Below, piece by piece: positions 897-36,743 of a stretch of DNA of 36,743 bases. This DNA comes from Psammoneis japonica (taxonomy: Eukaryota), in assembly GCA_008632985.1 (NCBI GenBank), contig QPGO01000094.1:1-36743 (forward strand). Direction: 5' to 3'. Position 1 is the first letter of the stretch, and the number at the start of each line of letters is the position of its first letter. Below the pieces are notes generated by a model. The model had not been told where the DNA came from, did not search any database, and saw only the letters and a program-made list of their open reading frames with translations. The position numbers and the translations under genes were made by a program.

Positions 897-2468
897 TCAC
901 ACCGGTACGGCGGACACTGGTACCGGTGACTTCTTATTGAACATTATATCGTAGAGCAAAGGAGAACCAACCTTCATCACAGCGGTGGTAAAGCAAACAT
1001 GGAGGATTCGTACTTCGAAACCGCGCATGTATGAATCGTACAATCCGCTCCATCCCTTTTCTTTTAAATCAGCCTTGAACAGTGAGAGTGCAGATACCTG
1101 CACTCCAGCTTTCTTTGCATCTTGAGTTTTCGCCACCAAGACATCAAGAGGAAGCGTCGAAAACGTTGACGCTGTTCCTCCCAATAAACTTGCGATGATC
1201 TTGTCGCCTGCCGACAAGACAGAAACGCCCTTTTGACGACGAAGAAGTCCCTCGAATATATCGGAGAACTAACGAGTGACGAGCACACGCTGGTAAGGGA
1301 AAGTAGTAGAAAGAGAAAAGCGCTTCGAGATATAAGACGGAACTTACGTAAAACCTTGTTGCCCAGTCAAAGACTCGCTTGGTTGCAAAGATGTTGGAAC
1401 CCTTCATTAATGCCCCAATACCTTCTTGTGCCACAACGTCAGCACCGATTTTGAAGCTGAGCCAAGTTGTTCTCCACAGTGACATTTGCTCTCGAAAGAC
1501 GGGATTCGTCATAACGCGAGTCTTGAGCAAGAGAGTCGGAGACAGTACATAACCTTGAAAGCCGCCTGCAATGCCACCAGCCAATGTCAAAGCCAATATC
1601 TCAGGAAGAATGCCATCGCTTGCAAGGGGCATGAGGAAACTGGTAGCTACGGAATGAGCAAGACCAAAGACACTTCCTTTCGCCAAGCTCTGAACAACAC
1701 CCCAAGGGACAAATCCATCCCATATTCCTGCAATTCCCTTTTGTTCCGTGATGCTTTTAATAACGTCGCCGTAGGTTGTACCTTGAGGAGAAGTCTGCAT
1801 AACGATTTTGACAAACTCCAGGAAATGTCCCAACACTGCTTCGTACATCAACGTAACAATTGCGGCCACAATGAGTCGCTTGGTAAATTCTGACCCACTT
1901 GTTGCTGCACCACCACGTAGCGAAAGAGCGGTCTGGCATCCCCGATGGCCTTTGCTTGAAAACAACGTTGACTGTGCGGCTTGAACTACTTCACGGTGAC
2001 CTCGTCCTTCGGAAGAAGGTGCATCGTATGAGAATGCTCTGTTTCGGCGAAGAGAAACATTCGACAGTATCAAAGAGTGTCCATCATCTTCGTCGTCATC
2101 GTCATCATCATCGCTTTCGTCGTCAGATTCGTATTCAGACTCGAGCGTTTGAACCTCGAACTCCGCCCCTCCGTTGCATGATAGCAACGCTTGAGTAGAA
2201 AAACAGAGCCACCCTCAAACAACAGCGAGCTTGTTACAATGGATGGATTCGTTTGCTCTGAATCCTCACTGTCAGTGTCTTTGTAGTAAAAGAGTGCCTC
2301 TGTTTCTGGAAAGTTATCCACGAAGCTCTCCGAAGGTTCGAGCGAGATCTGTGAACTGCTTCTGAAATTGTGAGGATTGTTCTTGTCGCCGAGGGCGCCT
2401 ACCAACTGGCCGCAGTTGACTAACAGAGATGCTGCTATTATGACGACAACATCGATGGAGGATATCAT
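897..2468 (-). CDS. Mitochondrial carrier family (SLC25-like) protein with long N-terminal extension; intron 1269-1347; apparent 1-nt frameshift near 2200
   Basis: Carrier-type motifs HFLEFVKIVMQ, PTLLLKTRVM, PLDVLVAKTQ and GIAGIWDG. The GTAAG...TTAG intron joins RFY to FSDIFEG in frame. Adding one T to the minus-strand T5 run at ~2199-2203 fuses the upstream signal-peptide ORF (2070-2468). Confidence 0.8.
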
Positions 2469-6292: not shown

Positions 6293-7525
6293 GATCAAAT
6301 CAAGCTGTCGGCTGTGGGATAAAACAAGAAAGAAATGTTGAGGAGATTGCTTTGACTTGCTTTTATTTACGCAGTTGCCGATACGAATTTAGCATCAGAA
6401 GGATACTATCAATGGGTGCTTGTTGTTTCTGGTGACAACCGTTGGAAACACCGCCATCTCCTCACCTTCAATTTCATTCACTTGTTGGTCAAAGGTGCAA
6501 GCTCGAGCATAGCACGACGAACGACGCGACGATGATGGCGGGCGGAGAGGGTCGCACGTTGCGCTTCGTACTGATCGTACAGTGGAATCGTGCGGAGCAC
6601 GTCGCACGCTACAAAGTAAGCGGTAAGTGAACAGTGACACGGATGACGGACAGGGAATGCTCGTGCCTTCTCTTCTCTGATTTATTCCACATCCGGGTTT
6701 TTCCCTGTAGCACTGTGAACTGCGCAGCGGCCCTCTGCTCTCTAGCTACGCTAGAGTAGAGGAGAACAATTTTGGACAGCCAAACGCGAGGTTCGGGGAA
6801 TGAAAACACATTGAACAATGACTGTCAACAAACGGCTCAGCAACCAGCAATGCAGGCAAAGCAAGTGCAGCCAGCCACCAATGCAAGTGTCACCTTCAAA
6901 CAACACACTCTGGCTCTCTTCCAATGACGGGAATGAGTGGTCAGGACAAGCGCTCTTGGTGCAGATGGGGAAGCACTGCCGTTTGACATTGGCACTTTTT
7001 GTGTTGGAACATGCAGAGCTCTGGAGCAGTCACACCAACCACAAAGTGGCATGTCAACCAAGCCACAAGTCAGCAATGCCACACAGCAACCTGCTGAGCA
7101 ACAAAGATGGTCAAAAAAGGAGCCATCGATGATGCCAGCCTTGCTCTTGGAGCTGTGCATGATCGGTCATCATTTGCGCCAGATGGTGCAGCACAGCACA
7201 CTGCTTGTGCCTGCTCTGAGTTGTTGATTGACGTGCACATTGTCTGCAGCCACTTGGCGAACAGGCGCATCAATCAAAGCAGGCGCCATGTTTCAGACAG
7301 GCTGACATTCAGAAGAAGAACATTGAGCTCATTTTGCAGCAAGGGAAGAGCTGCAGAGTCTTGCTCTTCACACAACAATGCAACACGATTGAGCATGCCA
7401 CCCAAACCAGTGAAGTGCAAAAAAAGATCTAGAGTCTCGAGAACTGCACAAAGCATCAGCAACTGCCACCTGACTTTTCTGCAAGGCTGGAAAAATTTGT
7501 TGAAGAATGTGGCTCAGACCCGTTG

Positions 7526-8272
7526 TGCTTGTGGAAATTGAGGTGTGATTCAGGGTGCAATTTTGGGGTGGTGCAAAAATGTGCATTGCACAAATTTACA
7601 CCCCAAATTTGCACCCGATTTTTGCATGAGTTCAAGAGTGTGAAATTTGACATCTGCAACTTTGTGAGCAACGACACATTCATTGAACACACGCTCCTGA
7701 AAAATTGTTGACATTCAAAGCAGGAACATCCCCATGTCTCTAATTTCAACCAACTTGTCTGTGCATGACTTGAACGCTCCAATGACTGCATCAAAACACC
7801 GCAGCATTTGGTGGCTCCACTGCAACCTTGCACACATCAAATCTTAGAATGATGCTGTTGATGTCACGCATCATTGTTGCATCCATGGCTGAGGTTTCAG
7901 CAACCATGTGACACATTTTTCTTCTAAGAAGGCATGAAGGTGCCATCATTCTGTCATTTGTTGACTTCAATCTTGTCACTTTTTGCCATTCTTTCTTTCA
8001 TGAACACACCACAATGGCTCCCCAGCAACAATTTTTCAACATTTTGTCGACCAAAGTTTGTCGCTGATTGTTGGTTGTCATTGTTGTTCAGTGTTCACAT
8101 GTTTTCTGCCATTGTGGATGATGATGAGTCTGTTGGCTGTGCAAAAAATTTTACAGGCAAAAAATGCATGTCTCTGGTGGCCCATTTGTTGGCTGCATTT
8201 TTTGAGGGGTGCATTCCGCACGTTTTTGCATCCCGAAATTGCACCCCGAATTGCACCCCTCCTCCACGAGCA
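7526..8272. mobile_element. Degenerate non-autonomous TIR element (~750 bp)
   Basis: 7528-7591 (cttgtggaaattgaggtgtgattcagggtgcaattttggggtggtgcaaaaatgtgc) is an imperfect inverted copy of 8209-8270 (reverse complement ctcgtggaggaggggtgcaattcggggtgcaatttcgggatgcaaaaacgtgc). Confidence 0.6.
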
Positions 8273-8794
8273 TGACAGGTCTCAGTGGCATGGTCAGATG
8301 AAGCTTGCAAGACAGACAGATGGAGCTCACTTGCACTGGCTCAGAGATTGTCATTGAAGATGCCTCTGATGTGGCCAGCTCACAGACCCTGGAGCAGTCA
8401 CAAGCCTCTTTGGCTCACAATGTCCACACAAGACCATTGAAATGGCCCTGACTCAAGCAGATCTATGCACTGCAAAGATGGCAGTGGACAAAAATGCGCA
8501 GCTCATTGTCCCAGGCAGCTCTGACTTTGTCACACATGTTGGCCCAAGCAAAAATTGAGTGGAGAACTTGCTGATGTCATCAAATTGCTGTGAGACGTGA
8601 GGAACAGATTTGTTCATTTGGACACAAACAGGCCAAAAACCTGCCACAGATCTTCTTGACAAAATGCTCTGTCTGAAATTGGGGAGGTGCCTGTTTCTTC
8701 AAACAAGCAAAGATGATGCGTTTCTGATTGCAAGTCAAACACACTCATCCACTTGTGAAAGCTGAGCAAAACACTTGGAGTGCAGGAGCTCTCA

Positions 8795-8865
8795 ACAGGA
8801 GTGCTTGAGATGCAGCTCTTGACAGGAGTGCTGGAAATGCAGCACTTGATTGGAGCACTCAAGAT
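8795..8865 (+). repeat. Degenerate 27-bp tandem repeat (~2.5 copies)
   Basis: acaggagtgcttgagatgcagctcttg / acaggagtgctggaaatgcagcacttg / attggagcactcaagat. Confidence 0.6.
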
Positions 8866-9918
8866 TGCCCAACACCAACCAACTTGGGCAGTGTGGAGGA
8901 AGTGGTGGGTGTGGCTGTCAATGGGCATGCTCAAAATGATGCAGCGCCAACTGACAAGGGTGGTGCGGAGGAAGCAGTGGCGGGCGCACACGATGCAACA
9001 TCAGCTGACAAGGTTGGCACAGTGGAGGCAGCAGATGAAATGCCAACACACCCAAAGGCATGCCAACAAAGGAAGAGCTCAAATGTGTGGGGATTGTTGA
9101 GGGCGCAATGTCTTGCCTGTTTGGGAAGGTCAAGTTTGCAAGCTTGGCACTCGAGGATGATGACAGGGTCAAAAAGAATCCAGTTGGCTTCAAGCTCTGA
9201 TGGCATCAATCCATGGAAAGTGTTGCTGTGCAAGATTTTAATCATGCAACTCACCACAAGCATGTTCAGAAGACTGCCAATGAGCTGTTGCTGCTTTGTC
9301 TCAAAAAGAACAGATGGAAACATGGGCAGGTCAAGTCCAAGAGTTCACAACAATGAGCAGCACCAAGTTGTCCCAATGAGAGCCAAAACAATGACAGGTG
9401 CTCTCTGACATGTCCACCACCCCAAACAGCATGACCAATGCTTGACTGACCAAGAAGAAGAAGTGCTGCTGCTGTGTCAAAGGATGTGACAACAACAGCG
9501 CCAGCAGCAAGTTGAGGCAAGCACCTCAAATTCCGCCAAAGCTGTTGAGTGGTGCGACCAGAGCAAACAAAATCTTGCACCGTGTCAGATCTTTCAAGCA
9601 GCAGGAGTGGACCAGCAGCTTGAGTCATGGTCGATCGTGCAACTTAAAAGACATCTGACTGTGTTGCTTGCACTCCAAGGAATCTGTCAGTGGTGGGAAG
9701 CTGTCAGTGGGATGCTGTCAAGTGTTGATGTCCAAAATGGCCAAATGGTTGCTGCATTGTCAGAGCCATTTGACGCTCCTGTGCTGACTGGGAAGATCAA
9801 CTTCCACACACCTCAAAATGTGCAACCAAGTGGTGCTGGCACATTTCAAGAGCTTCTTTGGCATGCTGTCACGTTGGGCTGGGCAAATTCAATGTTGTCT
9901 CCAGCGGCATGATCTGCA

Positions 9919-10945
9919 ATGGCAAGAGAAGCCAGTCAAGCACAAAACATTGAGAGCAGTCTTGTGTTGCCCACACAAAATGCATGGGAAAATGCAGATC
10001 CCAAGTGGAAGAAGCCATGCTTCACACACAAAGATTTGACTCCAGAAGAAGCAAAGCAACGCACCAGTTTCTGGGACTTGAAACATTTGCTGCAGCATGT
10101 GGCTGTTGTGCACAATGGCAACTTGGAAGTCATTGCCAAAACTGCAACAAAACTGACCTGGCTGGAAGAGCTTCTTTTGCATTTTGAATTTGCTTGGGGT
10201 TGCATGAGGACACAGCTGCAAGATTGCAAAAAAGAGAGCATGATGCACATCCACACACATTGAGAAAAACAATTGCTCATTGCCAGAAAAGCACGCCAGA
10301 TTTTTGGGTGAGATGGCCGATGCATGCACCACAACAAAGAGGGCGCAAATTCATGAGACACAAGAGCTGGGGTGCACACTTTTGTCCAACAACTGGCCAC
10401 CGCATTGTCACCCATGATGCGTCAAATGTTCCCATGCCAGATCCAAGCTTGGGTGACCTCAACCAAGCACTGCTCCACAAATGCTGCTGCAACACATGCA
10501 TTGTGCAAGGGTGGGTGTTGCTGCACAGCTGCATTGTTGGTTGTGTGGTTTGCCACTTGTGGCTGGACACAGTGGCGGTGATTGGCAGATTGAAGGTGCA
10601 AAGGCTCTTGAGCTCCAAAAGTTGTTTGCTGAAACTGACCCTTCTTCTTCCAGAGCCTTTCTGAATGCATTCAACAAAGGTTGCCATCAGATGTTGGAGA
10701 CACAAAAGCACAGTCAAATGTGCTGTCAACCGGAGTTGGCAGATGAAAAGTTCAGAGATGCAACAAGGTCACTTGCGCAGGTTGTGTGGCTGTCATCCGT
10801 TCTGGTGACAAGAGGTGTGCAAAATGCACCAAAACCTGTGTCCTGGTTCATTGAAAGAGGGCGCACCAACCAACTTTGGGGCATTGATTCTTCACTCTGC
10901 AATGCATGGGAGGCATTTGCATTTTTTTGCAAACTTCATGTTTGA
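9919..10945 (+). pseudogene. DDE transposase remnant, PIF/Harbinger-ISL2EU (DDE_Tnp_4)-like
   Basis: Frameshifted frames give HRIVTHDASNVPMP, GHSGGD, FLNAFNKGCH (recalled consensus DKGY) and AVIRSGDKR, in the order expected for this family. Confidence 0.55.
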
Positions 10946-11112
10946 CGTGTTTCAATGAATGTTGCTGCTGCAGTGCACAGAGAAAATGCAGAGCTGTGCA
11001 GTTGTGAGCAGCATTGAAACACGGGGTGCCAGCAGCTCATGTTGGCATTTAAAGCATCTTCATTGCATGGCAAAGCATGGTCATGGACTCTGCAACAAAT
11101 TTGCACCAGAAA

Positions 11113-11479
11113 TGCACCATGCTCGAAGAACGAGTGTAAACGAAAGTAGAGTGGTGTACGAAAAGTGGAAATTGTGAGATTGAATTTTGCTCTGTGATTT
11201 TTGGTTTCTCCGAACGAGTTCTCAATGGCCTAAAGCTTCTGTACTGCTTCTACAGACGAAAGGCCTTTCGGAGAATATATTCGTGACAACAGATTGTCCG
11301 GATGCGATTGCCATTGACACGTAAGATGTCAACATCGTCAATCGATCGTATTTGCAATTCTCGACATCCGATCAACTCTGTGTGATCGTTCTGTCCTTTG
11401 TACGCATCCACGACTGTGGTACGATTGACATATAAATAATATATAATCATATATATGTATATAACAGTCGCATACTGCA
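11113..11479 (-). repeat. 3' LTR of the Gypsy element
   Basis: Colinear without indels with 15471-15837; about 32 substitutions by hand count. Confidence 0.93.
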
Positions 11480-11490
11480 TTCGCCTCCCT
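11480..11490 (-). other. Polypurine tract (PPT)
   Basis: Minus strand AGGGAGGCGAA immediately precedes the 3' LTR. Confidence 0.75.
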
Positions 11491-13970
11491 AATTGCACAT
11501 TAGAGTCATTTGTAAGTGGATTATTCGACGGACATCGACAGTGTCAATAATGTCTCCACTTTCACTGTATTGTGCCATTAGCAATGACTGTTGTTGTTTT
11601 GTATAGGCAATATAGGGCCGTTCCAATTTCCGAATGTCTTTTGAGAGTGACATTGTTTGTTTCTCACTTAATATGTATATATATAGTATTACGTCGAGTA
11701 TTCTCATTGACGTTCTTGTTGATATGAACACAAGGACTAATTGTCCTGGAGTAGTGTTTTTCCTGATATCGATTGTACATAGCATCGTGCCCAGTACTTA
11801 ATGTACGCTCTTAATTATGGCGTTCACTTACTTACTTGTGGATTTCATGTAGTTTGGCGGGCTTACTTTATATGCCATATTGCTCTGCTGCACTACCACG
11901 TTTCATAAGTAATAATAAACGATGGTCAAGATATTATGACCATTTCGTCTTGATAATCAATCCTGTGATGGTTATGAATTCCATTATGGATTTTTTTTTG
12001 TACTTCAACCATCTATCAGTTGGATTTTAATCGTTATTTGGACGTTTCTTTCTGACATACCGGTGTTATTTTGTCATTCCGAAGGCACTGGTTTCGTGCA
12101 CTAAGTGGATAAATGTCCATTTTTCTTTTCTTTTTCTAGATCTTTGGCACATCTCGTGTGTCGACATGATGTATATTTTAATGTCTTGCCTCGTACATTG
12201 TACAATACAACCGTACGGGTGTTGTGAGATTGTCTTTTGCCAGTGTGAAGTGGATACGTATAATGTATACCAATCTGTCACTGTTTTTTCCTAAATCGTC
12301 CTTTAAAAAGGCGATTTTATCCTTGTGACATGAGCATTTTTCGATCTCGCTCGCCTCCACGAAAAGTGTTCGTATGATATGTCGCGTCCGACAATTTGGA
12401 GGGAATGTCTTCTTCCCGTTTTTTAACGGTAGGACATTGTCGTAGGATTCAATTTTCTATAGTAAGTCGGCTGATCGCGTCTATCGCGACGATGTTCGCC
12501 TTGCCCTCGTTGTATTCTAATTCGGGACTGAAGTTGTCAACGTATGACTTTGTCCGTTGTGTCTTATGATCCGTATATGTATAAATCTGTTGGCCAAACA
12601 GTATATTTCGGAATTTTATAAGTGTTTTCACTATGGACAGAAGTTCTTTTTCCGTTGTAACGTATAATATTGAAATCCGTGTATGATAACAATATAGTTT
12701 TTGATTTGATGCGCTCCACATTTTCGGAGACTTTTCGTTCCGTACTTGTACTTTTGCCGTTTGACCTTTATTGAGATGAATTTGGCTAGTATTGTACAGG
12801 AGATCGTTGAGACTACATGTCTCGATAACAGCAACGTATGACAACGAGATGTCGTAGTGTTCTTTACGTTTTTCTCGTGTTGCGATTGCTTGAATCGCCT
12901 CCATTTTCTTTGCAATCGATTGCATGTCGTTACGCATGGAAGTCTTGATAGTTTATTTCAAGTTAAATAGTGAAGGACTTTTGTTGTTAACCTTCTAAGC
13001 GACTGTTCTAGTCGTTTGAATGCCGCATTAAGCTGTCACTTGCACAGGTGATGTTTTGAAGTTACTTTTGTCAGGCACAAACGATCACATGCAGTCGTTC
13101 TGACAACTTCAAACCTGTTGTGAGTTCACTCAAGTGTTGTATAAAAATATCTGGGGCTCTGTAGATTCTCATTGGAAGTCCACAGTGCTCATTTTCTCCC
13201 CACGGCATGATTTTCGTGTGAGCACGACGTGTGCTTTTTTTGTTTGACATGGTGGCATTCCATGTTTGAATCAAACAGATCACATGCATGAAACGTTCTT
13301 GCTTCAATGGCATTTCCTGAACATTGGGTGAAGGATGCACCACCTGTGTGAACCTTGTGCCAAGCTTCTGAGTGTCGGGTGCAGTCGAACTCGACCTGTT
13401 TTCTTTGGACAATGAGTCTCAGAGCGACTCATTCAGAGCAACTTCATTCTTGAGACTTCAATCTTTCACAATGGGTCAAACTCCTTTTGATTGGACGCCT
13501 CCAAAGACTGTGACAGGAGAAGGTTCTCACGCGTCGTGGAATCGCGTCAGATTTTCCACGATGAGATCCGCTGATGCTTCCCATGCATTCGTCTGAGGAA
13601 CTTTTCAAAACGATTTCAACCTCTCAAGAAGAAGATTGAGTTGGTTGTGTTCATTTGGGTCAGATGCATCGCCGCAGTTGTCACTTGATTAAGATCAATG
13701 GCGTGACAATGTGAGTCGAGGACCATTGGCTCCGTTGTTGACTCTGTTCACGGCGTCACATTTTTCAATGTGATCGGTTTTCAGCTTGAAAACATCGGCA
13801 TCGAAGAGTGTGTGAACATTCTTCGTAAGGCAATTGCTTCTTCCCATTAGATTTCTGCATTTGCGCAGTCCAGTGTGACTTGCAGGGCTGGACATTAAGT
13901 CGCGTCCCATGATCACATCATTTGAACCTGAAGAAAATTTGGTGTTTTCAACACATGCTGTTTGCATGTC
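11491..13970 (-). pseudogene. Gypsy pol remnants (protease, RT, RNase H, integrase)
   Basis: DVIMGRDLM (protease, ~13900); FDSNMECHH and MPWGENEHCGLPM...APDIF (RT, ~13140-13280); YVTTEKELLSIVKTL...YTDHK and ANIVAIDAISRL (RNase H, 12450-12670); DWY...QH...CQR, TPGQLV and DTVDVRRI (integrase). Confidence 0.85.
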
Positions 13971-15470
13971 AGCATGCCTTAAATTTCACACAGCGAGAAC
14001 TGAATTCGGTGTTTGCTGTCAGTCGTAAAGAGCTCACCCTTGGTTTCCCAAGTTTTTGGTGGCGGATTCTTGTGTTCTCAACTTTCGCACGAATTTGCGC
14101 AAAATTGTGGTTGACGATGTTCCGTTGTCGACAGGAACACGCAGGTGCTTTTTTTTTTCTCCTTTCCCAAGGAAGCATTCACACAAATGATGACTCCTGG
14201 ACTGGCATGAATTATTTCTGCCTTTTTTCTGGGCTTCCCAATGTCCAGCAAAGCACACAATTCGTGAACAGACCAAAATTGTTCTTTGGATTCAGCCTGG
14301 ATCATCCGATCAAATTGGTGTTTTTCTTCACTGAGGGCATCAGAATCTGATTCTTTGCCCTTGTGCTCTTTTTCTTTGTTCAAGGAACTCGCTTTGAGCA
14401 TTTTTTGAACCGCCTGATCAATCATGACGTTCATCTCTTTTTTTGCGAGTGGCATTTTCGTCATCGCGACGCGACCGCGTGCGATTGCCATTTGAACGGC
14501 GCATTTTTGGGTCTCTTTCAGAGTCACCCTTGCACTCTTTTGCCAGTTCATTTTTAGAATGGCTTCAATCCGTGATGTGGGCATTCTTTTTTCAAAGATG
14601 AGACCTTGCATTCACTTTGGATTGTTCTGGCACCATGTGGGAGACCATTTTTGGAACCAAATTTGGAACCTTTTTTATTTTGGAACCAACTGCGCTGTCA
14701 GAGCCTGAGTTGACATGTTTTTTCGTCACGGACGTCATGAACGACCTTTAGATGACTCAAAACTTAATCAGCTCATCAAGGATGAGTTGCAATGGTTGAT
14801 TGTTTTGGACAGTAGACTGATGCTGCCATCCTTGCGGTGCGAGTGACAGCTGACAAATCAGCGCTTGGTTTCCCGCTAGATTCGACTTAGAATCCATCTG
14901 AGGGTCGCACAGACTCTCATCGTTGACCTCTTGGGTCTGACAGAGGCTTTCCCGCTGTCAAGCAGCTCTGGTTTTCTTCAGGTCATCTCGAAAATAATTT
15001 CCCTGATTCTGAAGTGCATTTCCTCGGAGGACATGAGTTGTGAGACGCTTGAGGTGCTTTCCAACGATTCCCTCTTGCTCCTTGGACTCGAGGATCATCG
15101 ATTCGGTCTCAAAAAACTCTCCAACAGTCTCTCCTTGCATGCCAGACGCATTTCTTGGACCTGATCGACTCGGAACTTGCATTCTCTGCAACCATGACTT
15201 GGTGTAGATTTTTTGACAATGCGGTGTGCTTGAGAGCCCTTGATCCTTGGGTGCTTGGAACAGACCGCACTGGAGCGAATCCTCTTGTCTGGTGGACGAA
15301 AAACAACGTTCCATCTTGAGGCACTGCTCGGCTTGAGCTTCTTCCGCTTTGGAAATCGATTCCAGCAGAACTGATGCGATTCATTCCTGTTCACAGAAGA
15401 ATTTGCAAAGGCACATCAGTTAAAATTTTCATTTTCCGTGCTTTTTACCTTCTGTGGTGTGTGTGCACAA

Positions 15471-15837
15471 TGCACTGTGCTCGAAGAACGAGTGCAAACG
15501 AAAGTAGAACAGTGTGCGAAAAGTGGAAATTATGAGATTAAATTTTGCTCTGTGATTTTTGGTTTCTCCGAACGAGTTCTCAATGGCCCAAAGCTTCTGT
15601 GCTGCTTCTACAGACGAAAGGCCTTTCGGAGAACACATTCGTGACAACAGATTGTCCGGATGCGATTGCCATTGACACGCAAGATGTCAACATCGTCAAT
15701 CGATCGTATTTGCAATTCTCGACATCCGATCAACTCTGTGTGATCGTTCTGTCCTTTGCACGCATCCATGACTGTGGTGCGATTGACGTGCAAATGACGT
15801 GCAATCACACATGTGTGCACAACAGTCGCATGCTGCA
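15471..15837 (-). repeat. 5' LTR of the Gypsy element
   Basis: Direct repeat of 11113-11479 with TG...CA ends. Confidence 0.93.
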
Positions 15838-15841
15838 GAAA

Positions 15842-18220
15842 ATTCAACGCCCCAAAAATGAACCATGAACACCTTCCATTGTGAGCTTGATCTGCTGCAC
15901 AAGAAGGTTGTTTCTTTCAAGATGCACATCTTTGGCTTTTTTCTCTCTCCCTGCTCTGTCTGTTTGTGTGCTGGCTCATCTCTTCTGTGCAATGCTCTGT
16001 TGTGTGTGTGTGCTCTCCTTTTGCCAGAAAAAAGATGTGGCTGTGGGATGTGTGCTGCCACTTGCTTTGAATCATGTCTGCAAGTGCGTGCCATTCTTTC
16101 GCTGAAGTGCAGCATCCTGTTGGGCAAATTCAAATTGTTGTTGACACAAGTGCCCATCAACATGATCATGGCAGAGTCTGTTTTTCTCTGCGCTCTTGAT
16201 CACAGCATTGTGTGTGCCAAAGAAATGAAAACAAACAACAAGTGTCTGTGCCAAAGAAATGAAAACAAACAACAAATCTTCTTTGGCTCTCTTGATCTCA
16301 GTGTGCAAAGCTCTTGTTGGTTGAATTGCCGCTCAAAGTGTTGTCATCAATTGACAAGAGCTGGCACTCTTCAACATGGGTGTTTTTTCCTCTTGTGTGT
16401 CATGGCAAGCTCACCCCAAAGGGGTGGCTCAAGCAAAAGCTGCACTCAGCAACCACAGTGTTTTCTGCTAAAATCAACAGAGCTGCAGCCAAATCTGATG
16501 CTGGGTGATCTGGCACAAATGTCAATTGTGTGGTGGTGCCTGAGGCCAATGACTGATGCCTCAAAAAACACATTTTGGGTCTCTTTGCATGTGTGCAAAA
16601 TGTGTTTTTGACAACAACAATTGCTCTCTTTTGTTGCAAACCTCCTCACAATGCATCATTGACAAATCTGCCACACCCACTCTCCCAGTTTCCGGTTTCC
16701 AGTGTTGCCCCATTTAAAATTGAGGCATTGCCCCAGACAAAAAATCAGCACTGCACAAGCACCAGATCACCCCCAGCTGCTTTGTTGCCTGTTTCCTGTC
16801 ACTGTTGTTGTGCGCCATTGTCATCATTGCTTGCAAAGTGAGTCACTTCGCCAGCTGCTTTGTGGCACCACACAAGAAGTTTTGCGCATCATCTGCAAGC
16901 TCTGCAAAATGACGTGGTCTTTCTGGGGCCTGCTGGAAATTTTGGTCACATGCATTGAAAAGGTCAACATGAGCAGCAAGCCACAAGAGCAGGACCTGGG
17001 TGCATTGTTGTGCTGTTTCTGAACTCTGAACATTTTTCTTTGGTTGTGCATTTTCCTCATGGCACCATTTTTGGAGATGCTTCCACACATTTCTGTGCAC
17101 AGCCAGCTGTTTTTGAATTAGACAGCCAACCAAGCAGCTGGCAACCACCCAAACAACCACAAAGTTTTCACTGCCACAAGCCTGGAATGCCTGGCACATG
17201 ACACTGGTGCTCCTCAACTCTGAAGCACAACCCCCTGGGTTGGCCAGCGCTCCTCAGCTCTGAAGCACCACCTCCTGGGTTGGCTGGCTGAGCTGGTCAA
17301 AGTCAAGAGATTAGAGCACAAAAGCAAAGCTGCCTCAAGGAGCAAGTGCACATGTGCTGGTCATCTGAGCACACTTGCTTGCACCATGAAAAAGCAAAAA
17401 GGCTGCTGAGTTTGGGAAAAGTGCACAGTTTCTCAGCAGTGTTGAGGTCACTCAGAGTCTCTCTTCATTTCAGACCTCCTGGCTGTGCTGCTTGCCTGCA
17501 TTTGCAGCAGCAGCAATGCCAAAAGACCCTCTGTCTCAGCTGCCAGCATTGGCTGCAGCCCATTAATCAGACCATGATGTGCTGCCTCCAGAGCCAGTGA
17601 AAGACTGTCTCTTTGGCACATCTGCCCCCCTGGCAAGACATTGGCGTGCGCTGCGCTTTGAGCGCAGCTGATTGTGAAAATTTGAGCCGAGAGAGAGAGA
17701 AGAGCAGTGTGCCTCATTTCTTTGAGGGGCTGTCTGATTTGTCCTCTCTTCTGCTGCAGGCTTTAATTTTCAACATGCACGGCAACAAATGGCGGCACTG
17801 CACCCCTGCCAGGGCATGCAGCAACAGCGTGGCGCGACAGCCCCACATGGGAGAGAAAAGCCTCCACAGGGTTTGCAGTCACCAGCTCAACAATCAACTT
17901 GCAGAAGAATGGGTTTTCTTTCACAACAACTGCCCTTGTTTTTTTTTTCTGACAAGAGACAAAAGAGGTCACCTGCCGCCACAAAAGTCCCTTGTTTTGG
18001 CAAAAAAGCTGCTGCAGTGCCCAGAAGCCGGTGCTGGAGAGAGCCCCTCCTCCATTTGACAACAACATCATGTGTGCAGTGCAGTGATGCAGGACAACCT
18101 TGACAATCATGAACGAGACCAGTTTTCTCATCAATGGGGAGAAACACTGGGCAGTTTCAATGCGATTGCCCGCCACTTTGACGTGAGCAACTTTCGACGA
18201 CTGGGGGTGTGACGAAAAAA
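15842..18220. other. TpA- and CpG-depleted degenerate repeat domain (right part of island), family unassigned
   Basis: About six TA in ~2.4 kb; ORFs are Tyr-free; the pattern ends abruptly at ctttaaaattataatac (18221-18237). Confidence 0.85.
17205..17284 (+). repeat. 40-bp tandem duplication
   Basis: gctcctcaactctgaagcacaaccccctgggttggc / gctcctcagctctgaagcaccacctcctgggttggc. Confidence 0.85.
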
Positions 18221-18568: not shown

Positions 18569-18698
18569 GTACCGCTTTTCCTCCACATTTCTGCGTCATT
18601 CAATCTATGATGGCGATCTTTCTGCATTGATTGTAGTACTGCTTTTCCTCCACATTTCTCCGTCATTCAGTCCATGATGGCGATCTTCTGCATGGATT
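18569..18698 (+). repeat. ~65-bp tandem duplication
   Basis: gcttttcctccacatttct(g/c)cgtcattca(a/g)tc(t/c)atgatggcgatctt occurs at ~18574 and ~18641. Confidence 0.85.
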
Positions 18699-20604: not shown

Positions 20605-22226
20605 TCATGCAGCAACATCATTAGCATGGGCGTTGCCAACAACATGGCTTTGTCGGTTGTCTTCTTCCCACAGTAAGCGTTCGAAAGTCTCCTCTGGGGA
20701 ACGCAGCAACACGTCTTCACTCAAGTGCTTTGTCGCGGCATTCAAAATCAATTCAGAGATGGGAGGTTTGCCAGACAGCGAGACGCCCTCTCGCAAGTAC
20801 TTCTTCGGAAGTGAAGCAATCTCATCCAATTCGATGCGATATCGCTTCGAGTTGGGTTCTCCAGCAAACAACTGACAAACCGCTTTGACAATGAATCGCC
20901 GGATTTTTGCAGGATCCCATAGATTTTCTTCCTCATCGGCATGTCGACCGTATTCTTGAAGTATTTCTAGCCGATTCAAATGTCTGCAGGAGTCATCCTT
21001 GTAGAGTAGACGGTCCGCCATTGCAAAATTCCAAGGCTGAGCGGCAAACGAACGCCCGACCATTACCCCTAGCAAACCGGGACATTCGTCAAATTCCGTC
21101 TGAGCATCAGTCAAGCTACCGATACCACCATTGACCGAAAACGTAAGCTCTGGATAGTCTTGTACAAGTCGTCTGACTAGTTCGCGTTTCAGAGGTGGTA
21201 TTTTTCGATTGTCCGCAGGCGAGAAAGATTTCTGAAGAACGGCAATACGTGCGTGCACAGAAAAGTCGGTCACGACATTGTTCGCCGCTACTCGTTCAAT
21301 GAAGCTGCAAAGTTTGGAATACTCCATCTCAGGATCAATGCTGTCGTAAGCCTTTCGAGTGAAAGACTGGTCATTTGACGTTCCAATTCTACATTTGACC
21401 GTCACTGGCAATTTCCCGCCGGTACCGTCATGTAAAGCAGAAGTGAGTTCTGCTACCAGATCTGGATCGTCCATCAGAGCAGCTCCAAAGCATCCTTTTC
21501 CGGCTACCTTTGGAGAAGGGCAGCCGCAGTTCAGGTTGATGGCGGTGTAGTCGCACCATCCTCGGTCAGTCATGTCCATCACAGTCTGGGCTGCTTCATA
21601 CATTTGCTGAGGATCTGAACCACCTAATTGCAACACGGAAGCGCCCTCAAGCGGTTGTATTAGCCCTTGGCCAAGGTAACGCCTCATAAATTGATCATCA
21701 TAGCCCTTTCGTGCTTGTTCTGGGGTTGCTGTTGGATTCTGGCTTATGAATTCGTCCTCTTTGTCACGACGCTCGTGAACCAAGGCATTTGCTGCAACCA
21801 TCTCGGTATAGAGCAAGGTGCGGTTCGAAATGAGCCTTACCAAATGCCGAAAATGCCGGTCTGTGTACTCCATCATCTATTCATCAAAGGACATGCAAAA
21901 GAAGAAAGTGGAGTTACACAATGCGTGAGACGCATGAGACAAACAAAAGAAGAAAGTTAGAGCGAACATACCGGTGCGAGAGACAAGCGGCTTGCTTCCA
22001 TCAGTTCTTTGTATTTTGTCTCCCTCGTGGCTGCATTGTCCTCACTGGACTCTGTCGATGTTGTGACCTGGTACAGGTTTCGCCGAGAAAGAGCTTTCCT
22101 TTGTGTAAGGGAAGCAAAAGCAGGTACACGGCCAGCCGCCGACCCTCTCATTTGCAAACCGTACATTACAACGCAGCTGTATTCAATCGATACAATAACA
22201 GATAGAAGCTGCGGTCCCCACCTCAT
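20605..22226 (-). CDS. dusA: tRNA-dihydrouridine synthase, DusA-like; intron 21877-21971
   Basis: LSLAP/MMEYTDRHFR, YTEMV, LQLGGSDP, INLNCGCPS, FGAALM, VTVKCRIG, VHAR, NGGI and VMVGR. The N-terminal extension may be an organelle-targeting peptide; the start codon is uncertain. Confidence 0.88.
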
Positions 22227-23933: not shown

Positions 23934-25169
23934 ATGGGAGATGCAACCAGCGGAGCCATGGATAGAGCGACGGAGAATGTGGTGACGATGGAAAACGCTG
24001 ATAGTCTGAGAGCAGAACACGAGAAGCAACGTATGAATCTCACCTCAATCCATCAGAAAGCGTTGGCTCGTCTTTTTCCTCCTTTGGACTCGACGAAAAC
24101 CGGTGCAAGAAAGATTTCCAACAAAATCAAAGAATTGCAAAAGAAGCGAAACAAGCTGAGGGATCGTCGAATTTTCCTTTTCTCAGAAATCAAAAGGCTT
24201 GAAGCCACAGAGATTTGCTCCAGTGTGGCGTTTGATCTGACTGGGGTGCGAGGGAGCTCGAATCTACCTTTTGTACGTTCCTACTCTAGTAGTCGCCCTT
24301 CGCAATTAGATGATAACGCGAAGGACGATTTCTATCAAGATCTAGCAAACAAGATGAAGAATATCCGTTCCAAACGAAGAGTTGTTGGTGCTCACTGCGT
24401 TTCCGGGATATCCCTTTTGCCCCGTAAGGATGACAGCACTTTTGGTGTTCGTTTCGACATTGCTGTCAAAGGACGCTACAGTACCGGTCACGTTGCCTTC
24501 TTTCGAATCATCAAGGATCATATCAAAGGAAAATACCTTCGGTTGGTTCAACATACTCTTCCAAAAGGTCTTCTCACAAATGCAGACATGTCGGTGGACC
24601 TACCAGCAGATGATGCTGACGATGGACTATCTAGGAAAGCGTTTGTCAGCGCTTTACAAGAACGCGTCGGCTTTCTGTACGATGTGCTCCATGCGCATGT
24701 TCATCGACGAACAGCTTGTCTCTGGCTGTCGAACGAGGCGGAACAACAGCAACAACAAGACACTTCGAGAATGGTCCAGTGTGTGAGTTTCAACGAGCAA
24801 TACAACGTTGTTTCGTTCCAAATGGTTGTTTGTTTCCGTCCAGGTCAGGCGGAGGCAAATAATGATGAAAGCCGCGAGTTGCGACACCAGGTCACGCTAT
24901 TCTACAGAAAACGTTTGAGATCCAATCCCACCCATGTCTCTATTAAACACATCAAGCATCCCTTGCCTACCGGTACAGCTGAACACAGAACCGGCACCAA
25001 TGTCGGCGCAGAGGTCGCAAATGACGAATATACTGGCGATAATGGTTCAGAAAGGGAAAGCATCGATCAGCGAAAATTGAACGAGCTCAAGAAGGTTTTC
25101 ATTCGTTATCCCATACCGATCTCAATTTCAAGCGCCTGGGAGTCAATAGAGTCCGCAACTCATCACTAG
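23934..25169 (+). CDS. Putative CENP-O/Mcm21-like kinetochore protein
   Basis: N-terminal coiled coil, then SGISL...FGVRFDI...G...LRLVQHTLP...LHAHVHRR, resembling the recalled CENP-O RWD signature. Confidence 0.6.
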   Translation: MGDATSGAMDRATENVVTMENADSLRAEHEKQRMNLTSIHQKALARLFPPLDSTKTGARKISNKIKELQKKRNKLRDRRIFLFSEIKRLEATEICSSVAFDLTGVRGSSNLPFVRSYSSSRPSQLDDNAKDDFYQDLANKMKNIRSKRRVVGAHCVSGISLLPRKDDSTFGVRFDIAVKGRYSTGHVAFFRIIKDHIKGKYLRLVQHTLPKGLLTNADMSVDLPADDADDGLSRKAFVSALQERVGFLYDVLHAHVHRRTACLWLSNEAEQQQQQDTSRMVQCVSFNEQYNVVSFQMVVCFRPGQAEANNDESRELRHQVTLFYRKRLRSNPTHVSIKHIKHPLPTGTAEHRTGTNVGAEVANDEYTGDNGSERESIDQRKLNELKKVFIRYPIPISISSAWESIESATHH

Positions 25170-25637: not shown

Positions 25638-27347
25638 ATGAACCAACTCTTCCGTCCCCGGCATCCGTCGCTGGAGGATGTGCGTCAAACTCAGCACACC
25701 AATCGTTCCTACTCACAATTGCCTTCTGACGCGAGACGCACCAATGGGACCTCACAAGCGGAACCGTCGTTTGATAGAGATGAAGCATCGCTATGGGACT
25801 CGATTACCTGCGTCATAACAGGCGTCGCTGCGATATTTTGCGTTTTGGGGCTGGTGACGATCCTGGCAGTTCTATTTGTGACAGTTCGTCCTTTTTCTCG
25901 ATCTTCTTATCGACGGCTGGCGGCACACACCGGTGCTGCGGCGTTCCTTGACGCTGTTGCTCTCTTACTGCCGGCGACCAAGATTTATGTCACGGGAGAT
26001 TCAGACATGCCTTCCCCAGTTGGTACAAGCCTGTTAGTATGCAATCACCTGATAGACGCAGACTGGTGGGTTATACTTATGTTAGGGAGGTGTGTTGGAC
26101 TCCGGGGAAGTGAAAAGGTGTTCCTAAGAAACGAAGTGCTTCAGAGCAGTCGAAGATCAAGTCAAGGAAAACCCTCTGTTAATGGCACTTCGAGAACGGA
26201 CGCTTCATCGCAAGTTTTGTCATCTGCTTCCACAAAAAGTGTATCATTTTCACGTTCAGCTCCCGTTGGTGGGACATCATTTGGGCGGCTTCCGGTCAGT
26301 CCACAAATTCGTATTGCCGCACGACTTTTGCATGCACTCCTTGAATTCCCCTTGTTAAGCGGGGAGAACAATAAGGATTACATATCAGATCGAGAAAATC
26401 TGTTTGAGCTTCTTCGGTCATTTGCCGGGGATACGGAGACCGCGGCACCTGTGCACCTCCTCCTTTTCCCAGAAGGTTGGTCTCTTCACGACAATGGATG
26501 CTTGGATCGGAAAGCCGTTTTGGCCATGAGCAACGAATTCGCGAAAAGGGAAGGACGACCACAGCTGAAGCATTTGCTGTTGCCACGGACGACTGGATTC
26601 AACGCTTGTCTCGAAAGCCTTCGTGAATCAAGCCCAGTCGTTTATGATGTTACAATGGTAGGTTTGCTTGTTGCTCATTATTTCGTTCGTCTCCCGGAGG
26701 ACTGTTGTCTAATCATAATTGCGTTCTCTTTGGCCTTTGCTTCCAAGGCATACGCTGGCTACAATGGGACGGTTCCTCCGTCTCTCTCCCTATCTCTTCC
26801 TAGCCTTTGGCGATTTCTTCGCATAGGGTTCCCTCGTGAGTTTCACGTTCGAATCAAACGGTATAGCATGGAGGAGGTGCTGAATGATTCTGGTTGGTTA
26901 GATAAGCAATGGGCAGAGAAGGATCGGTTACTTGGGCACTTCTCACGTCACCAGTCTTTCCCGATAGAAAGTCGTGGTTTTTATCGAAACCGAGTATTTG
27001 ATACTCAGAGGCAGGCGCTGGAAAGCTCTGTGCTTGCCCTGCTGCGTTTGCTGTTTCTGCCTTTCACTATTCCATTTCTTCTCCTACTTTCGGTGCCATT
27101 CTTCTGGACTGGGGTTTGGTTGTGGTTGGGTTTTCAGGCCTTCAAACTTGTCACTACGGCTTCAGACGGTGCTCCGTCTCGACGGACTGTAGACGACCCT
27201 AACGTGCACGATGGTGCAGGAACTGCTGAGACACCAGGGAGTGTCGGAGGCGGCGCAGATTCAAATGCCGGGACACCATACGTCCCGAGCACGCCATTTG
27301 TATCTCCGACTGTTGCAAATTGGAGGAATCCCCATGGCAGTGACTGA
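25638..27347 (+). CDS. Lysophospholipid acyltransferase (PlsC; LCLAT1/AGPAT-like); in-frame intron 26658-26747
   Basis: Motifs NHLIDAD (NHx4D), FPEG, HLLLPRTTGF, VYDVTM/AY and WLDKQWAEKDRLL. Confidence 0.88.
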   Translation: MNQLFRPRHPSLEDVRQTQHTNRSYSQLPSDARRTNGTSQAEPSFDRDEASLWDSITCVITGVAAIFCVLGLVTILAVLFVTVRPFSRSSYRRLAAHTGAAAFLDAVALLLPATKIYVTGDSDMPSPVGTSLLVCNHLIDADWWVILMLGRCVGLRGSEKVFLRNEVLQSSRRSSQGKPSVNGTSRTDASSQVLSSASTKSVSFSRSAPVGGTSFGRLPVSPQIRIAARLLHALLEFPLLSGENNKDYISDRENLFELLRSFAGDTETAAPVHLLLFPEGWSLHDNGCLDRKAVLAMSNEFAKREGRPQLKHLLLPRTTGFNACLESLRESSPVVYDVTMVGLLVAHYFVRLPEDCCLIIIAFSLAFASKAYAGYNGTVPPSLSLSLPSLWRFLRIGFPREFHVRIKRYSMEEVLNDSGWLDKQWAEKDRLLGHFSRHQSFPIESRGFYRNRVFDTQRQALESSVLALLRLLFLPFTIPFLLLLSVPFFWTGVWLWLGFQAFKLVTTASDGAPSRRTVDDPNVHDGAGTAETPGSVGGGADSNAGTPYVPSTPFVSPTVANWRNPHGSD

Positions 27348-33284: not shown

Positions 33285-35020
33285 CTAGTATAAAGGAAAT
33301 GTGCGATCCACTTCATACTTCCAAGACACTAGTCCTCCACGTATATTGTAGACGGAGTGTATATATGGGTTGTTCTTGGCTGCTTCCGCCAGTAACGCCG
33401 TTGCTTCAGCAGAAAAGACTCCTCGTCGACACAAGCAGTAGATTGGCTTTTCTCCATCCGATTCCTCAGCCAACTGACGCAGCGAGATACGACCGATTTC
33501 TCCTTTTAGCCTATCTAAAGGAATGTTCAAGACTGTAACCCCGTCCAACGAGCACATCTCGAATTGACGCTTTACACGTACATCTAACAGTATATATGGC
33601 TCTCCACTTCTTCGAATCCTGTCAAATTCTGTGCAAGAGATCTCTAGTTCTTCTGGCAATTTAATTGGCGTAACTCCGTTGGCTCTTTCTGCGTTTGCAG
33701 GGCCTTGTACAGCCTCTGTTGTCTTCTGACTGTCTTCCATTGACTTAATGGTCGCTTCGGGCCCACAGACAGGACATTTGCTTTGTTTGGGCGGCCTCTT
33801 GATGCTAAAAAAAGAGCACTGCAAAGAGTCGTACATCATTAATCGATTGTTCATTGGGGTGCTGCATTATTACAGATGAACGCCAGAAAATCTGAGAGTC
33901 GTGTTCATCAAGTAAATGAATATTTTTATGATGACAGCAAAAGATCGACTTACCCTACACCAGTCAGAACCTTCAACACCTCGATCGCCTGGAGTACGCC
34001 AATGAGTCCGGGAACTGTGCCTAAGACACCACTATCTGAGCAACTATTGCATCCTTCGCCAGGGGATGGATTCGGGTAAAGACACCTGTAACAGCCTTCA
34101 CCACCGTGGTTGTACACTGTCAACTGCCCCTCCGTTCCGATGGCACTTCCGGATATCAAAGGTTTATTCGCTAGTACGCATGCATCGTTGATAAGGTAGC
34201 GAGTCCGCGGGTTGTCCGACGCATCAACTACGCAGTCGTGTCGCGAAACGAGTTCCAAGGCATTTTCGTGCGTAAGCACCTCTCTGACCGGTACATATCT
34301 GATAGAAGAGTTGACATCGCGTAGAGCAAGACACGCGGAAAACGCTTTGGGCATCCCAACAGTCGATTCCCGGTGGATTATTTGACGGTGCAAGTTGGAA
34401 ATCTCCACATCATCAAAGTCCACAACGCTGATCTTACCAATGCCAGACGCCGCCAAATACAAAAGAGCTGAAAACGACAGCTTCTTCGTTAGCAATCTGA
34501 AAGTCTCCACCAGCGAAGAAAATATGTAGGACATACCTGTTGAACCAATCCCTCCAGCTCCAATCACAAGAACTGATGACGATAGCAGTTTCTTCTGTCC
34601 TTCAACGCCGTAACCATCCTTCAACAACAACAACTGCCGGGAATACCGTTTAACATGATCACGAGACAATTCAGCAACAGGTTCAAGCTCTGCGCCCGCG
34701 TCGCCTTGGTCGCCCTGTGAAGTGATGGGTTGTAGGTGATACTCGGACTTTAGTTTCCTCTTCTCGTCATTCAATCTCTGGTTCTCTGTTTGAAGATATT
34801 GGAGCTGTTCTTCCAGATCCTGGATTCGCTTCCTCCACTGTGCGTATCGCATTTCATGAAGCTTCTCCTTCGTTTCAAACTCGCGTTCCATCTCCTGCAT
34901 TTTCTTCTCTAACAACTTTTGGTATTCAATTCTTTCTTGAAGTGATGTACTGTGCAGCATGTTCGCGGCGCTTTCCGATAGAGCCTTCCAAACAGATGGT
35001 TCCTCATGATTTTTGTCCAT
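33285..35020 (-). CDS. MOCS3: Adenylyltransferase/sulfurtransferase MOCS3/UBA4 (ThiF plus rhodanese); introns 34468-34536 and 33862-33953
   Basis: RYSRQLL, VLVIGAGGIGS, DFDDVEISNLHRQ, CYRCLYP, CPVCG and the rhodanese loop CRRG. Confidence 0.93.
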
Positions 35021-36018
35021 CTTATTATCTTCCACACGTAAACTGATAATGGTCTTCTAAAGACTGGTCCTGACTATTGACTTTCAGCTCCGGCAGAGCA
35101 ATCTACGTCAACCTGAAGCATGCAGTGCTGACAGCGAAGTTAGGTTGAGTCTTCACAACATTATTCCAGCCCAGCTTGCCAGTGCCGTATTAGTTTTTTC
35201 CCGTCCCGTTCCCTTTTCGTGTTTCTCACGACTTTTTCGAATTTTCCAAAGTACACTTTTCCTGATATTACAGAATACAATGGCTATCCAGCAGTTCCTC
35301 ACATCCAGCCACGGTTACATAATGAGTAGGAGTTGTACAGTAGAATTCGTTGAAACATACTGTACGACGTCAGCAAGAACATGTGTCTGGCATGCATCCT
35401 ACATAATGTGTACAGTACATACTACCGTAGGGCTATTGCACCCAATCGACGGACGCCTTCCGTTTTGTTTCGCGGTTCTCGCTATAGCGAGCGGCGTAGC
35501 ATCAGTCACTTTCATGGAGTGCACCGCTGGTCGTTGTCGACAACCTCCGTGTCTTGTGTTATACACCACTGTGGAGGAACCGGATGCAACGTCGTCTCAT
35601 GAAAAGGACACGTCTCTTGCAAAGGAAATCGAAGGCACCGTTGCCGCAACACTGGCGTCTCTTGCACCGCCGCGTAACGCAACGATCACAACTGCGACAG
35701 CGGAGGTGGCGCCGACTTCAACCATGACGAACCAACCGTCGTCGTTGGTGGAAGGAGACGTGCCGGCATCGCAGACTGCAGCAAAACCGCCTGCAAAGGA
35801 GCCAATCGCCCTCCCCCCATTGATCCCTTGCAAGGCATCCGAAATCCATGGAGGACTGGATTTGGTCACCATGCACAATTGCGAATCGGTGAACTCAAGC
35901 GGCACCATGCATTTTAAGGATCCAAACTGCGACATGAGTTCGATCCACACAACCGAAGCAAAAGCAGATGCAAACAACCTGGATCCTGGAAACAACGAAA
36001 CAACTGAGATGGCAGCAA

Positions 36019-36311
36019 NNNNNNNNNNNNNNNNNNNNNNNNNNNNNNNNNNNNNNNNNNNNNNNNNNNNNNNNNNNNNNNNNNNNNNNNNNNNNNNNNN
36101 NNNNNNNNNNNNNNNNNNNNNNNNNNNNNNNNNNNNNNNNNNNNNNNNNNNNNNNNNNNNNNNNNNNNNNNNNNNNNNNNNNNNNNNNNNNNNNNNNNNN
36201 NNNNNNNNNNNNNNNNNNNNNNNNNNNNNNNNNNNNNNNNNNNNNNNNNNNNNNNNNNNNNNNNNNNNNNNNNNNNNNNNNNNNNNNNNNNNNNNNNNNN
36301 NNNNNNNNNNN
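36019..36311. other. Assembly gap (N run)
   Basis: Run of n characters. Confidence 0.99.
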
Positions 36312-36743
36312 TTCGACGAAAATTGGCGGCTTCGCCTTCAGATGCGCGTTAAATTGAAGGTGCCTTGGAGGGATCACATCGAAATCGGTCGTTCTCAAAG
36401 GAAGGGCGCAGGACTCGGTGTCTTCGCATTGTCTTTCTTCCAGAAACAAGAGGTCATTGGCGTGTGCATTGGCACGGAAGTGTCTAGAAACCCAACTCCC
36501 TTCACTCACTGCTCTCATGACGAGCAGCACGGAATCGACCACAGCGACTGTCTCCTGACACTGCGCGAGCCCAGCGGTCACCATGTGACGGCAGCTCCCC
36601 AACCCTTGGAACTGGAAGAGGGTGAGAACACCAAGCCTCTACACCTGGGTGTGCATTGTGTGAACGATGCGGAGGACACCTTTGAAGACCCCACCAAAAT
36701 GACGAAGTTGGAAGTCAATGCCAGCAACTGTCATTTCAACAAC
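36312..36743 (+). pseudogene. SET-domain-like coding fragment, TpA-stripped, runs off the window end
   Basis: Open frame from 36312: IEIGRSQRKGAGLGVFALSFFQKQEVIGVCIG...PLHLGVHCVND...NCHFN, matching SET motifs GxGLFA / IGxYxG / xxxxN with Tyr positions replaced. Confidence 0.6.

Follow-up and report, generated by a model that had tools for sequence, protein, structure and literature searches.

The stretch of DNA considered here (the window, 36,743 nucleotides of contig QPGO01000094.1, NCBI GenBank assembly GCA_008632985.1, forward strand) stems from the diatom Psammoneis japonica. Host genes of normal composition lie on both sides of an 11.4-kb block in which the dinucleotide TpA (TA) is nearly absent, and this block contains a dead Ty3/gypsy-like long terminal repeat (LTR) retrotransposon in minus-strand orientation (Table 1). 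The retrotransposon is inserted into an older repeat block and consists of two unlike halves, a 5' half purged of TA and a 3' half largely retaining it, which meet inside the reverse transcriptase (RT) gene. An earlier note, made from the sequence alone, had read three decayed RT motifs at 13140 to 13345 and claimed that TA was the ancestral state there and was lost by change to CA or TG. Following this claim, we hold with good confidence that a process acting on chromosomal DNA after insertion turned TpA into CpA or TpG and purged the outer block as well as the 5' 2.7 kb of the element.

Table 1. Coordinates of the features discussed in the text (positions in the window).
Feature	Position	Strand	Remarks
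TA-purged block	6767-18210	.	11.4 kb; TA near absent except in 11102-13165
Outer block, left part	6767-11101	.	stripped of TA and CG; probably repeat-derived
Outer block, right part	15838-18210	.	6 TA vs 157 expected, rho 0.04; CG rho 0.21
Dead Ty3/gypsy-like LTR retrotransposon	11102-15837	-	LTR pair and remnants of protease, RT, RNase H and integrase finger in order
Purged 5' half of element	13166-15837	-	5' LTR, gag region, protease, first part of RT
Largely unpurged 3' half of element	11102-13165	-	rest of RT, RNase H, integrase finger, 3' LTR
Purge edge inside RT gene	13017-13181	.	change-point support interval (2 lnL units), 165 bases
5' LTR (TA-purged copy)	15464-15837	-	paired with 3' LTR
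3' LTR (TA-keeping copy)	11102-11479	-	25 TA sites in ungapped block
Protease motif remnant	13890-13919	-	DVIMGRDLM vs family DMIIGRDLL
RT remnant	12950-13490	-	tblastn and frameshift-aware alignment to 62-protein profile
RT motif HPSP (family Y/F-P-I-P)	13337-13326	-	CAT CCT TCA CCC
RT motif FDSNMECHH (family LDLNMGYYH)	13275-13249	-	TTT GAT TCA AAC ATG GAA TGC CAC CAT
RT motif GENEHC (family GKYEYQ)	13199-13182	-	GGA GAA AAT GAG CAC TGT
RNase H remnant	12454-12664	-	55% identity to P0003 residues 616-694; Pfam RT_RNaseH E=2e-6; Tyr codons kept
Integrase finger	~12450-12110	-	weak match by alignment to intact pols
Mitochondrial carrier	1144-2187		host gene, normal TA content
Dihydrouridine synthase (Dus)	20605-21876		host gene, normal TA content
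CENP-O-like	23934-25169		host gene, normal TA content
Acyltransferase	25638-27347		host gene, normal TA content
ThiF/MOCS3-like	33950-35035		host gene, normal TA content

The borders of the purged block were located by change points at 6757/6767 and 18210/18224, that is, to within 10 to 15 bases. The number of TA per 200 bases is 0 to 5 inside the block and 5 to 26 in the bins beyond its edges. If the ratio of observed to expected occurrence (rho) is regarded, the left outer part (counted over 6790 to 11101) possesses 10 TA against 293 expected (rho 0.03), with a rho of 0.24 for CG and 1.9 for CA+TG; over both outer parts CA+TG reaches 1.8 to 1.9 and CG 0.21 to 0.24. In the purged 5' half of the element 23 TA occur where 192 are expected (rho 0.12) and CG is undepleted (rho 0.84), so the CpG deficit with its excess of TpG and CpA is a feature of the outer block and not of the purged half of the inner element. 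The 3' half contains 153 TA against 185.5 expected (rho 0.82). In the gene-bearing flanks rho is approximately 0.97 for CG, and the host GC content is 0.47 to 0.48. The loss of TA is thus confined: rho is 0.03 to 0.12 in the purged tracts and 0.60 to 0.63 in the flanks that carry the Dus, MOCS3-like and other genes, and the neighbouring genes are spared. We also note that the unpurged 3' half lies above the host in CG (rho 1.30) and below it in GC content (0.39).

The edge within the RT gene is pronounced as well. Among all TA, CA and TG steps, TA accounts for 36% below this edge and for 5% above it. TA is present at 13140, 13142, 13148 and 13162, and the low end of the range regarded in the earlier note (13140 to 13165) therefore already belongs to the TA-keeping part.

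All three motif remnants of that note (HPSP, FDSNMECHH and GENEHC) can be read from the minus strand, with FDSNMECHH in a different frame from the other two and a frameshift in between. As a reference we used a profile of 62 intact Ty3/gypsy pols, and residues per column were counted over these 62 proteins. The first motif is composed of Tyr (32) or Phe (30), Pro (62), Ile (58) or Leu (4), and Pro (62). In the second, LDLNMGYYH, every residue is found in all 62 relatives apart from Met and His, which occur in 61 each; in the third, Gly and Lys occur in 62, the first Tyr in 57, Glu in 61, the second Tyr in 58 and Gln in 61. Two of the family motifs given in the note, LDLNMGYYH and GKYEY, match the profile; the third, YPLP, has to be corrected to YPIP, as Leu is present in only 4 of 62. 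The codon changes it had put forward (TAT to CAT, TTA to TCA, TAC to TGC and TAC to CAC) are all compatible with the codons present. Both TGC at 13257 and CAC at 13254 stand where 62 out of 62 relatives possess Tyr. CAC at 13187 likewise represents a loss of TA, and AAT at 13193 a change of another type. Other replacements within the motifs that differ from TA loss are G379>E, K401>E and L374>F, besides Y402>N, the AAT just mentioned. The intact relatives do not contradict the note, as they encode Tyr and not His or Cys at the key positions: Tyr occupies columns 380 and 381 in 62/62, column 404 in 58/62 and column 370 in 56/62 of them.

To extend the comparison beyond the motifs all columns with Tyr as family consensus (at least 50% in the 62-protein profile) were regarded. 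Within this one element, none of nine such columns is kept on the TA-poor side, compared to six of nine on the TA-normal side (Fisher p=0.009). Along the matched reading path, Tyr codons number 0 in 238 codons of the purged half and 10 in 228 codons of the other half. The nine Tyr columns of the purged half now read Cys, Leu, Arg, His, His, Cys, His, Asn and His, and the six that read His or Cys represent single TA losses. Other conserved columns of the purged half are kept in 69 of 172 cases (p=0.014 compared to Tyr). Tyr is encoded by TAT and TAC only, and because of this every conserved Tyr in the affected half has turned into His, Cys or another residue. For the same reason a stretch of 4.3 kb with 10 TA cannot have encoded Tyr-containing proteins.

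The same direction emerges if single-base reversals are counted. In the purged half, reversals restoring TA regain the family residue in 15 out of 55 cases (27%), compared to 72 out of 738 for the other single-base classes (p=0.0004) and 21 out of 169 for other transitions (p=0.018). In the TA-normal half TA-restoring reversals yield 5 out of 31, without an excess. The replacements explained by loss of TA include Tyr to Cys, Tyr to His, Leu to Ser (TTA to TCA), Leu to Pro (CTA to CCA), Ile to Val and Ile to Met. A count of this kind had been suggested in the earlier note; it yields the excess in the purged half (15/55), and this excess is modest in extent, with 15 of 112 replacements explained. 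Tyr columns, reversal counts and intact relatives are in agreement, and the claim that TA was ancestral and lost, not gained, is supported. The direction of change can be regarded as established.

The LTR pair provides the timing and the specificity. Two LTRs are identical when an element inserts, owing to reverse transcription. Here they form a direct repeat (11111 to 11479 and 15469 to 15837) of 369 bases with 91.3% identity, the sole repeat of this family in the window, and they differ at 32 core positions. In 23 of these 32 the 3' LTR reads TA and the 5' LTR reads CA (13) or TG (10). As the LTRs were identical at insertion and now differ at TA sites, the loss of TA postdates insertion. The 3' LTR has 25 TA sites, at which the 5' LTR reads CA (12), TG (9), CG (1) or TA (3); thus 22 out of 25 TA sites are lost, whereas only 4 of 171 A/T bases outside of these sites and 6 of 149 G/C bases are changed (p=5e-22). 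The process is restricted to TpA, and it hits both strands: T to C (13) and A to G (10) occur without bias and in 14 runs compared to 12.3 expected, and no strand-coordinated runs of changes were seen in the LTR pair. A change on the second strand of a site already hit almost never occurs. The single CG among 25 sites is far below independence (Fisher p=0.001), and this rarity of double hits fits a process that requires an intact TpA. The two LTRs contain 23 and 24 CG, and therefore CpG loss is no part of the TA-loss step. The 3' LTR itself bears approximately four TA losses (two reversed sites and two sites with CA against TG), so that the "normal" half is lightly touched. Biased gene conversion was also considered and was rejected, since A/T bases outside of TpA are almost unchanged (4/171).

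The few TA that survive in the purged tracts indicate that the neighbouring bases matter. Among survivors the context pyrimidine-TA-purine (YTAR) occurs in 24 out of 39 cases, compared to 215 out of 1190 in reference DNA (p=5e-9), and this context resists the process. If the surviving targets are counted per strand, the ratio of TAY to TAR is 3:29 in the outer blocks and 1153:919 in host DNA; within the element it is 13:33 in the purged half and 190:104 in the other half. From these ratios it follows that the A of 5'-TAY-3' is the preferred target. The LTR pair alone gives hit rates of 21/40 for TAY and 2/10 for TAR, which is not significant (p=0.085), and the flank rule is based on the survivors and not on these hit rates. 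The natural target of TadA is the A of UAC in the anticodon loop of tRNA. By analogy with this target, the preference would fit a deaminase of the TadA/ADAT2 type.

The identity of the element is documented by several lines of alignment. For tblastn, intact pols were used that had been found via the neighbouring RNase H; these relatives carry RVT_1 (PF00078), RNase H and integrase domains. Residues 340-577 of P0003 align to 13376-12669 and residues 273-375 of P0005 to 13412-13107, and all 252 matches obtained with 122 family proteins lie inside 12100-14500. A frameshift-aware alignment to the 62-protein profile runs from the protease motif at 13919 through the RT to the RNase H at 12454. This path changes frame 15 times and is interrupted by several in-frame stops; of the integrase, the greater part is lost. 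Neither of the two open reading frame (ORF) pieces of the RT matches Pfam RVT_1, even if E values up to 1 are admitted, which fits a decayed copy. An exhaustive protein search with the 115-residue RT ORF for closer relatives returned 11 proteins, all distant, the best being 41% identical with a best stretch of only 30 residues; the nearest intact relatives are likewise distant (25-55% identity). Between 12664 and 12669 the family columns 578-615 (approximately 38 columns, the start of RNase H) are gone, and the alignment changes frame over 5 bases. On the minus strand the purine run AGGGAGG adjoins the 3' LTR on its inner side, and no clean target-site duplication was found at the outer ends of the element. 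We also observe that outside of TpA the two LTRs show only 10 differences in 320 bases, yet frame changes (15) and numerous stops are found in the coding region; possibly the element was defective before it inserted and was mobilised by the proteins of another copy. Compared to the Ty3/gypsy elements of marine protists (the P0003 family, more than 3000 proteins), it shares the LTRs, the order protease, RT, RNase H and integrase, and the motifs Y/FPIP, LDLNMGYYH, GKYEYQ and LPMG..SPDIFQ. It differs from them in being dead: frame changes and stops are present, and the N-terminal part of RNase H as well as the bulk of the integrase are gone.

For the outer block, none of 25 ORF pieces taken from both outer parts attains a Pfam cut-off, tblastn with the 122 gypsy pols gives no match there, and no internal repeats were detected. 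The regions 6800-11100 and 15840-18200 are filled with overlapping ORFs of 100 to 250 residues in several frames and on both strands, rich in Cys, His and Gln and without family match. Such long overlapping ORFs arise because the loss of TA removes the stop codons TAA and TAG, and gene callers would probably report false genes here.

Further outside, two direct repeats of 52 bases (92% identical, 67 bases apart) are located at 18569-18687, just beyond the purged block. Another TA-poor tract reaches from approximately 35570 to beyond the end of the window (36743). It contains only 2 TA within 35563-36018, followed by a run of N (36019-36311) and 3 TA in the subsequent 432 bases; the open ORF 35145-36743 that covers this tract gave no hit to Pfam over its initial 291 residues. 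For the MOCS3-like gene, the best relatives with a named organism (46-69% identity) all come from diatoms, as far as the names are recognised.

Several other explanations have to be weighed. A process of the opposite sense, in which a C-to-T change like that of repeat-induced point mutation (RIP) turned CpA/TpG into TpA and created the TA-rich half while the TA-poor state is original, could draw on the composition of the TA-normal half, which is richer in AT than the host (GC 0.39) and exceeds it in TA rho (0.82 compared to 0.60-0.63), and also on one conserved Cys column that reads TAC at 13163. We regard it as practically negligible: the TA-normal half is the one that keeps Tyr (6/9), whereas the TA-poor half shows His or Cys where 56 to 62 of 62 relatives possess Tyr, and TA-free coding DNA cannot encode Tyr at all. 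Reversals in the sense of a TA gain (CA or TG to TA) are moreover without excess in the TA-normal half (4/30 compared to 75/638). ADAR-like A-to-I editing of the element RNA, fixed by reverse transcription before insertion, is very improbable as well. In its favour, such editing typically prefers U before the edited A (Discussion of Mettrop et al., bioRxiv 10.64898/2026.01.13.699255). It does not account for T to C (13) and A to G (10) both being present on one strand, nor for a purge that continues unbroken into flanking DNA which is not part of the element and halts in the middle of the element. A fresh insertion has identical LTRs, whereas the two LTRs here differ at 23 TA sites.

That the pattern is an artefact, either because the sequencer misread bases that are modified at TpA in silent chromatin or because a purged and an unpurged copy were joined in assembly, appears quite improbable, even though a switch in the middle of the element is what a chimeric join of two copies is expected to produce. 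Miscalls on two strands should yield many TA and CG outcomes, but CG is found once among 25 sites of the LTR pair and its rho is 0.21-0.24 in the outer block. The purged half bears frameshifts and stops like any decayed copy, and the corresponding signature in Bigelowiella natans appeared as new mutations in Illumina-sequenced lines (bioRxiv 10.64898/2026.01.13.699255). More serious, although still unlikely, is the possibility that the process is real and only its edge within the RT is secondary, if recombination or gene conversion placed an unpurged 3' half onto a purged copy or the reverse. The transition is fairly sharp, with a support interval of 165 bases. Targeting in place poorly explains why the untouched half lies directly beside a flank that is fully purged, and the 3' LTR has approximately four TA losses of its own. 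On the other side, no second copy of the family is present in the window, and hence no donor can be named.

Some observations also weigh against the post-insertion loss of TA itself or limit its reach. The Leu to Ser reading in HPSP depends on a residue carried by only 4 of 62 relatives, and two conserved Tyr columns read Asn (AAT) and Leu (TTG), neither of which is a loss of TA. Conserved columns of the purged half show 112 replacements; one TA loss explains 15 of them, a further 36 need a transversion, and for 40 no single-base path exists. Ordinary divergence therefore accounts for the majority of replacements in the RT, as the nearest intact relatives are distant and the copy is strongly diverged for other causes. 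The TA-normal half shows a few replacements of the TA-loss type, too (5 out of 31 opportunities, e.g. Y523>C). The 3' half adjoins a purged flank and is almost unaltered nevertheless, so that simple spreading from the flanks fails to account for it. One must further keep in mind that the ancestral states were drawn solely from distant proteins and the sister LTR, and that the sequence represents one assembly.

Taking these points into account, we propose the following course of events for the loss of TpA. After insertion of the element, a process working on chromosomal DNA would turn TpA into CpA or TpG, that is, by A:T to G:C transitions on either strand. Its reach would comprise the outer block in full and, within the element, the 5' 2.7 kb, with an end inside the RT gene. 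An enzyme could deaminate the adenine of 5'-TAY-3', or the paired thymine could be altered to the same effect, two options which the sequence cannot separate, and the role might be a genome defence directed against silent repeats. The loss of CpG in the outer block is a separate and slower process, probably the deamination of methylated cytosine; in the younger element TA is lost and CG is kept.

A comparison to known systems puts this proposal into context. RIP, as found in Neurospora and other fungi, changes C:G into T:A, mostly CpA to TpA, and yields TA-rich DNA. It has in common with the present case that inserted mobile or repeated DNA is densely hit by dinucleotide-specific transitions and its genes are destroyed, in tracts with edges and with spared neighbours. 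The direction is reversed, however, as here TpA is destroyed and GC rises. ADAR and APOBEC in animals act on RNA or single-stranded replication intermediates and leave one-strand patterns common to both LTRs. Hyperediting by ADAR and hypermutation by APOBEC likewise consist of deaminase-type transitions with neighbour preference, aimed at mobile or viral nucleic acid. They differ from the present case, in which both strands are hit and the LTRs are unlike each other.

The closest parallel was reported in a preprint on B. natans. According to its text, new TpA to TpG/CpA mutations arise in mutation-accumulation lines, almost only as A to G and T to C and all at TpA; the targets are integrated giant-virus and virophage DNA, TpA-poor tracts are enriched in transposon domains, and an ADAT2-like adenine deaminase is proposed (Mettrop et al., bioRxiv 10.64898/2026.01.13.699255). 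Both cases share changes that are almost exclusively A to G and T to C, fall on TpA and leave TpG or CpA, with either strand affected. They also share the confinement to foreign or silent DNA with host genes spared, and TpA-poor, CpA- and TpG-rich tracts that include RT genes. The host there is a chlorarachniophyte and here a diatom, and the target here is an LTR retrotransposon together with DNA that is probably repeat-derived. The erasure is near complete in our case (rho 0.03-0.12), compared to 0.45 given for the viral region of B. natans. Mutation-accumulation data are presented there, while we regard the footprint alone. The main text of the preprint makes no mention of diatoms, CpG or flanking bases (bioRxiv 10.64898/2026.01.13.699255); at the present locus the older block is also depleted in CpG, and a preference for TAY with sparing of YTAR is seen. 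In full-text literature searches no paper was found that describes a TpA-erasing process in diatoms. As a single element, the retrotransposon provides a clean example of TpA-erasing hypermutation in a diatom. Hypermutation of this kind is known from one preprint, and its mechanism is inferred.

The value of this element is that of a natural experiment. A purged and an unpurged half are present in one copy, the LTR pair dates the change to the time after insertion, and the conserved tyrosines provide the direction without the need of a close relative. It also separates the fast loss of TpA from the slow loss of CpG, and the flank rule can be used as a test for any candidate enzyme. As a practical consequence, TA-free tracts produce long false ORFs, as TAA and TAG are missing, and conceal transposons from domain searches.

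Tentatively, and with somewhat less than even confidence, we suggest that diatoms possess a dedicated DNA editor for silent repeat domains. Such an editor would hit the A of 5'-TAY-3', spare YTAR and make one hit per TpA independently of CpG methylation. It would stop at sharp, chromatin-like borders, which may even fall inside a gene. This "reverse RIP" defence might rely on an adenine deaminase of the TadA/ADAT2 type and be common to diatoms and chlorarachniophytes by descent or convergence. A mutator of mobile DNA that erases TpA would oppose the usual mutation bias from GC to AT and, if true, represent a kind of genome defence not known outside one preprint of 2026. Its occurrence in a diatom would extend this defence to a second, distant and ecologically dominant lineage of algae.

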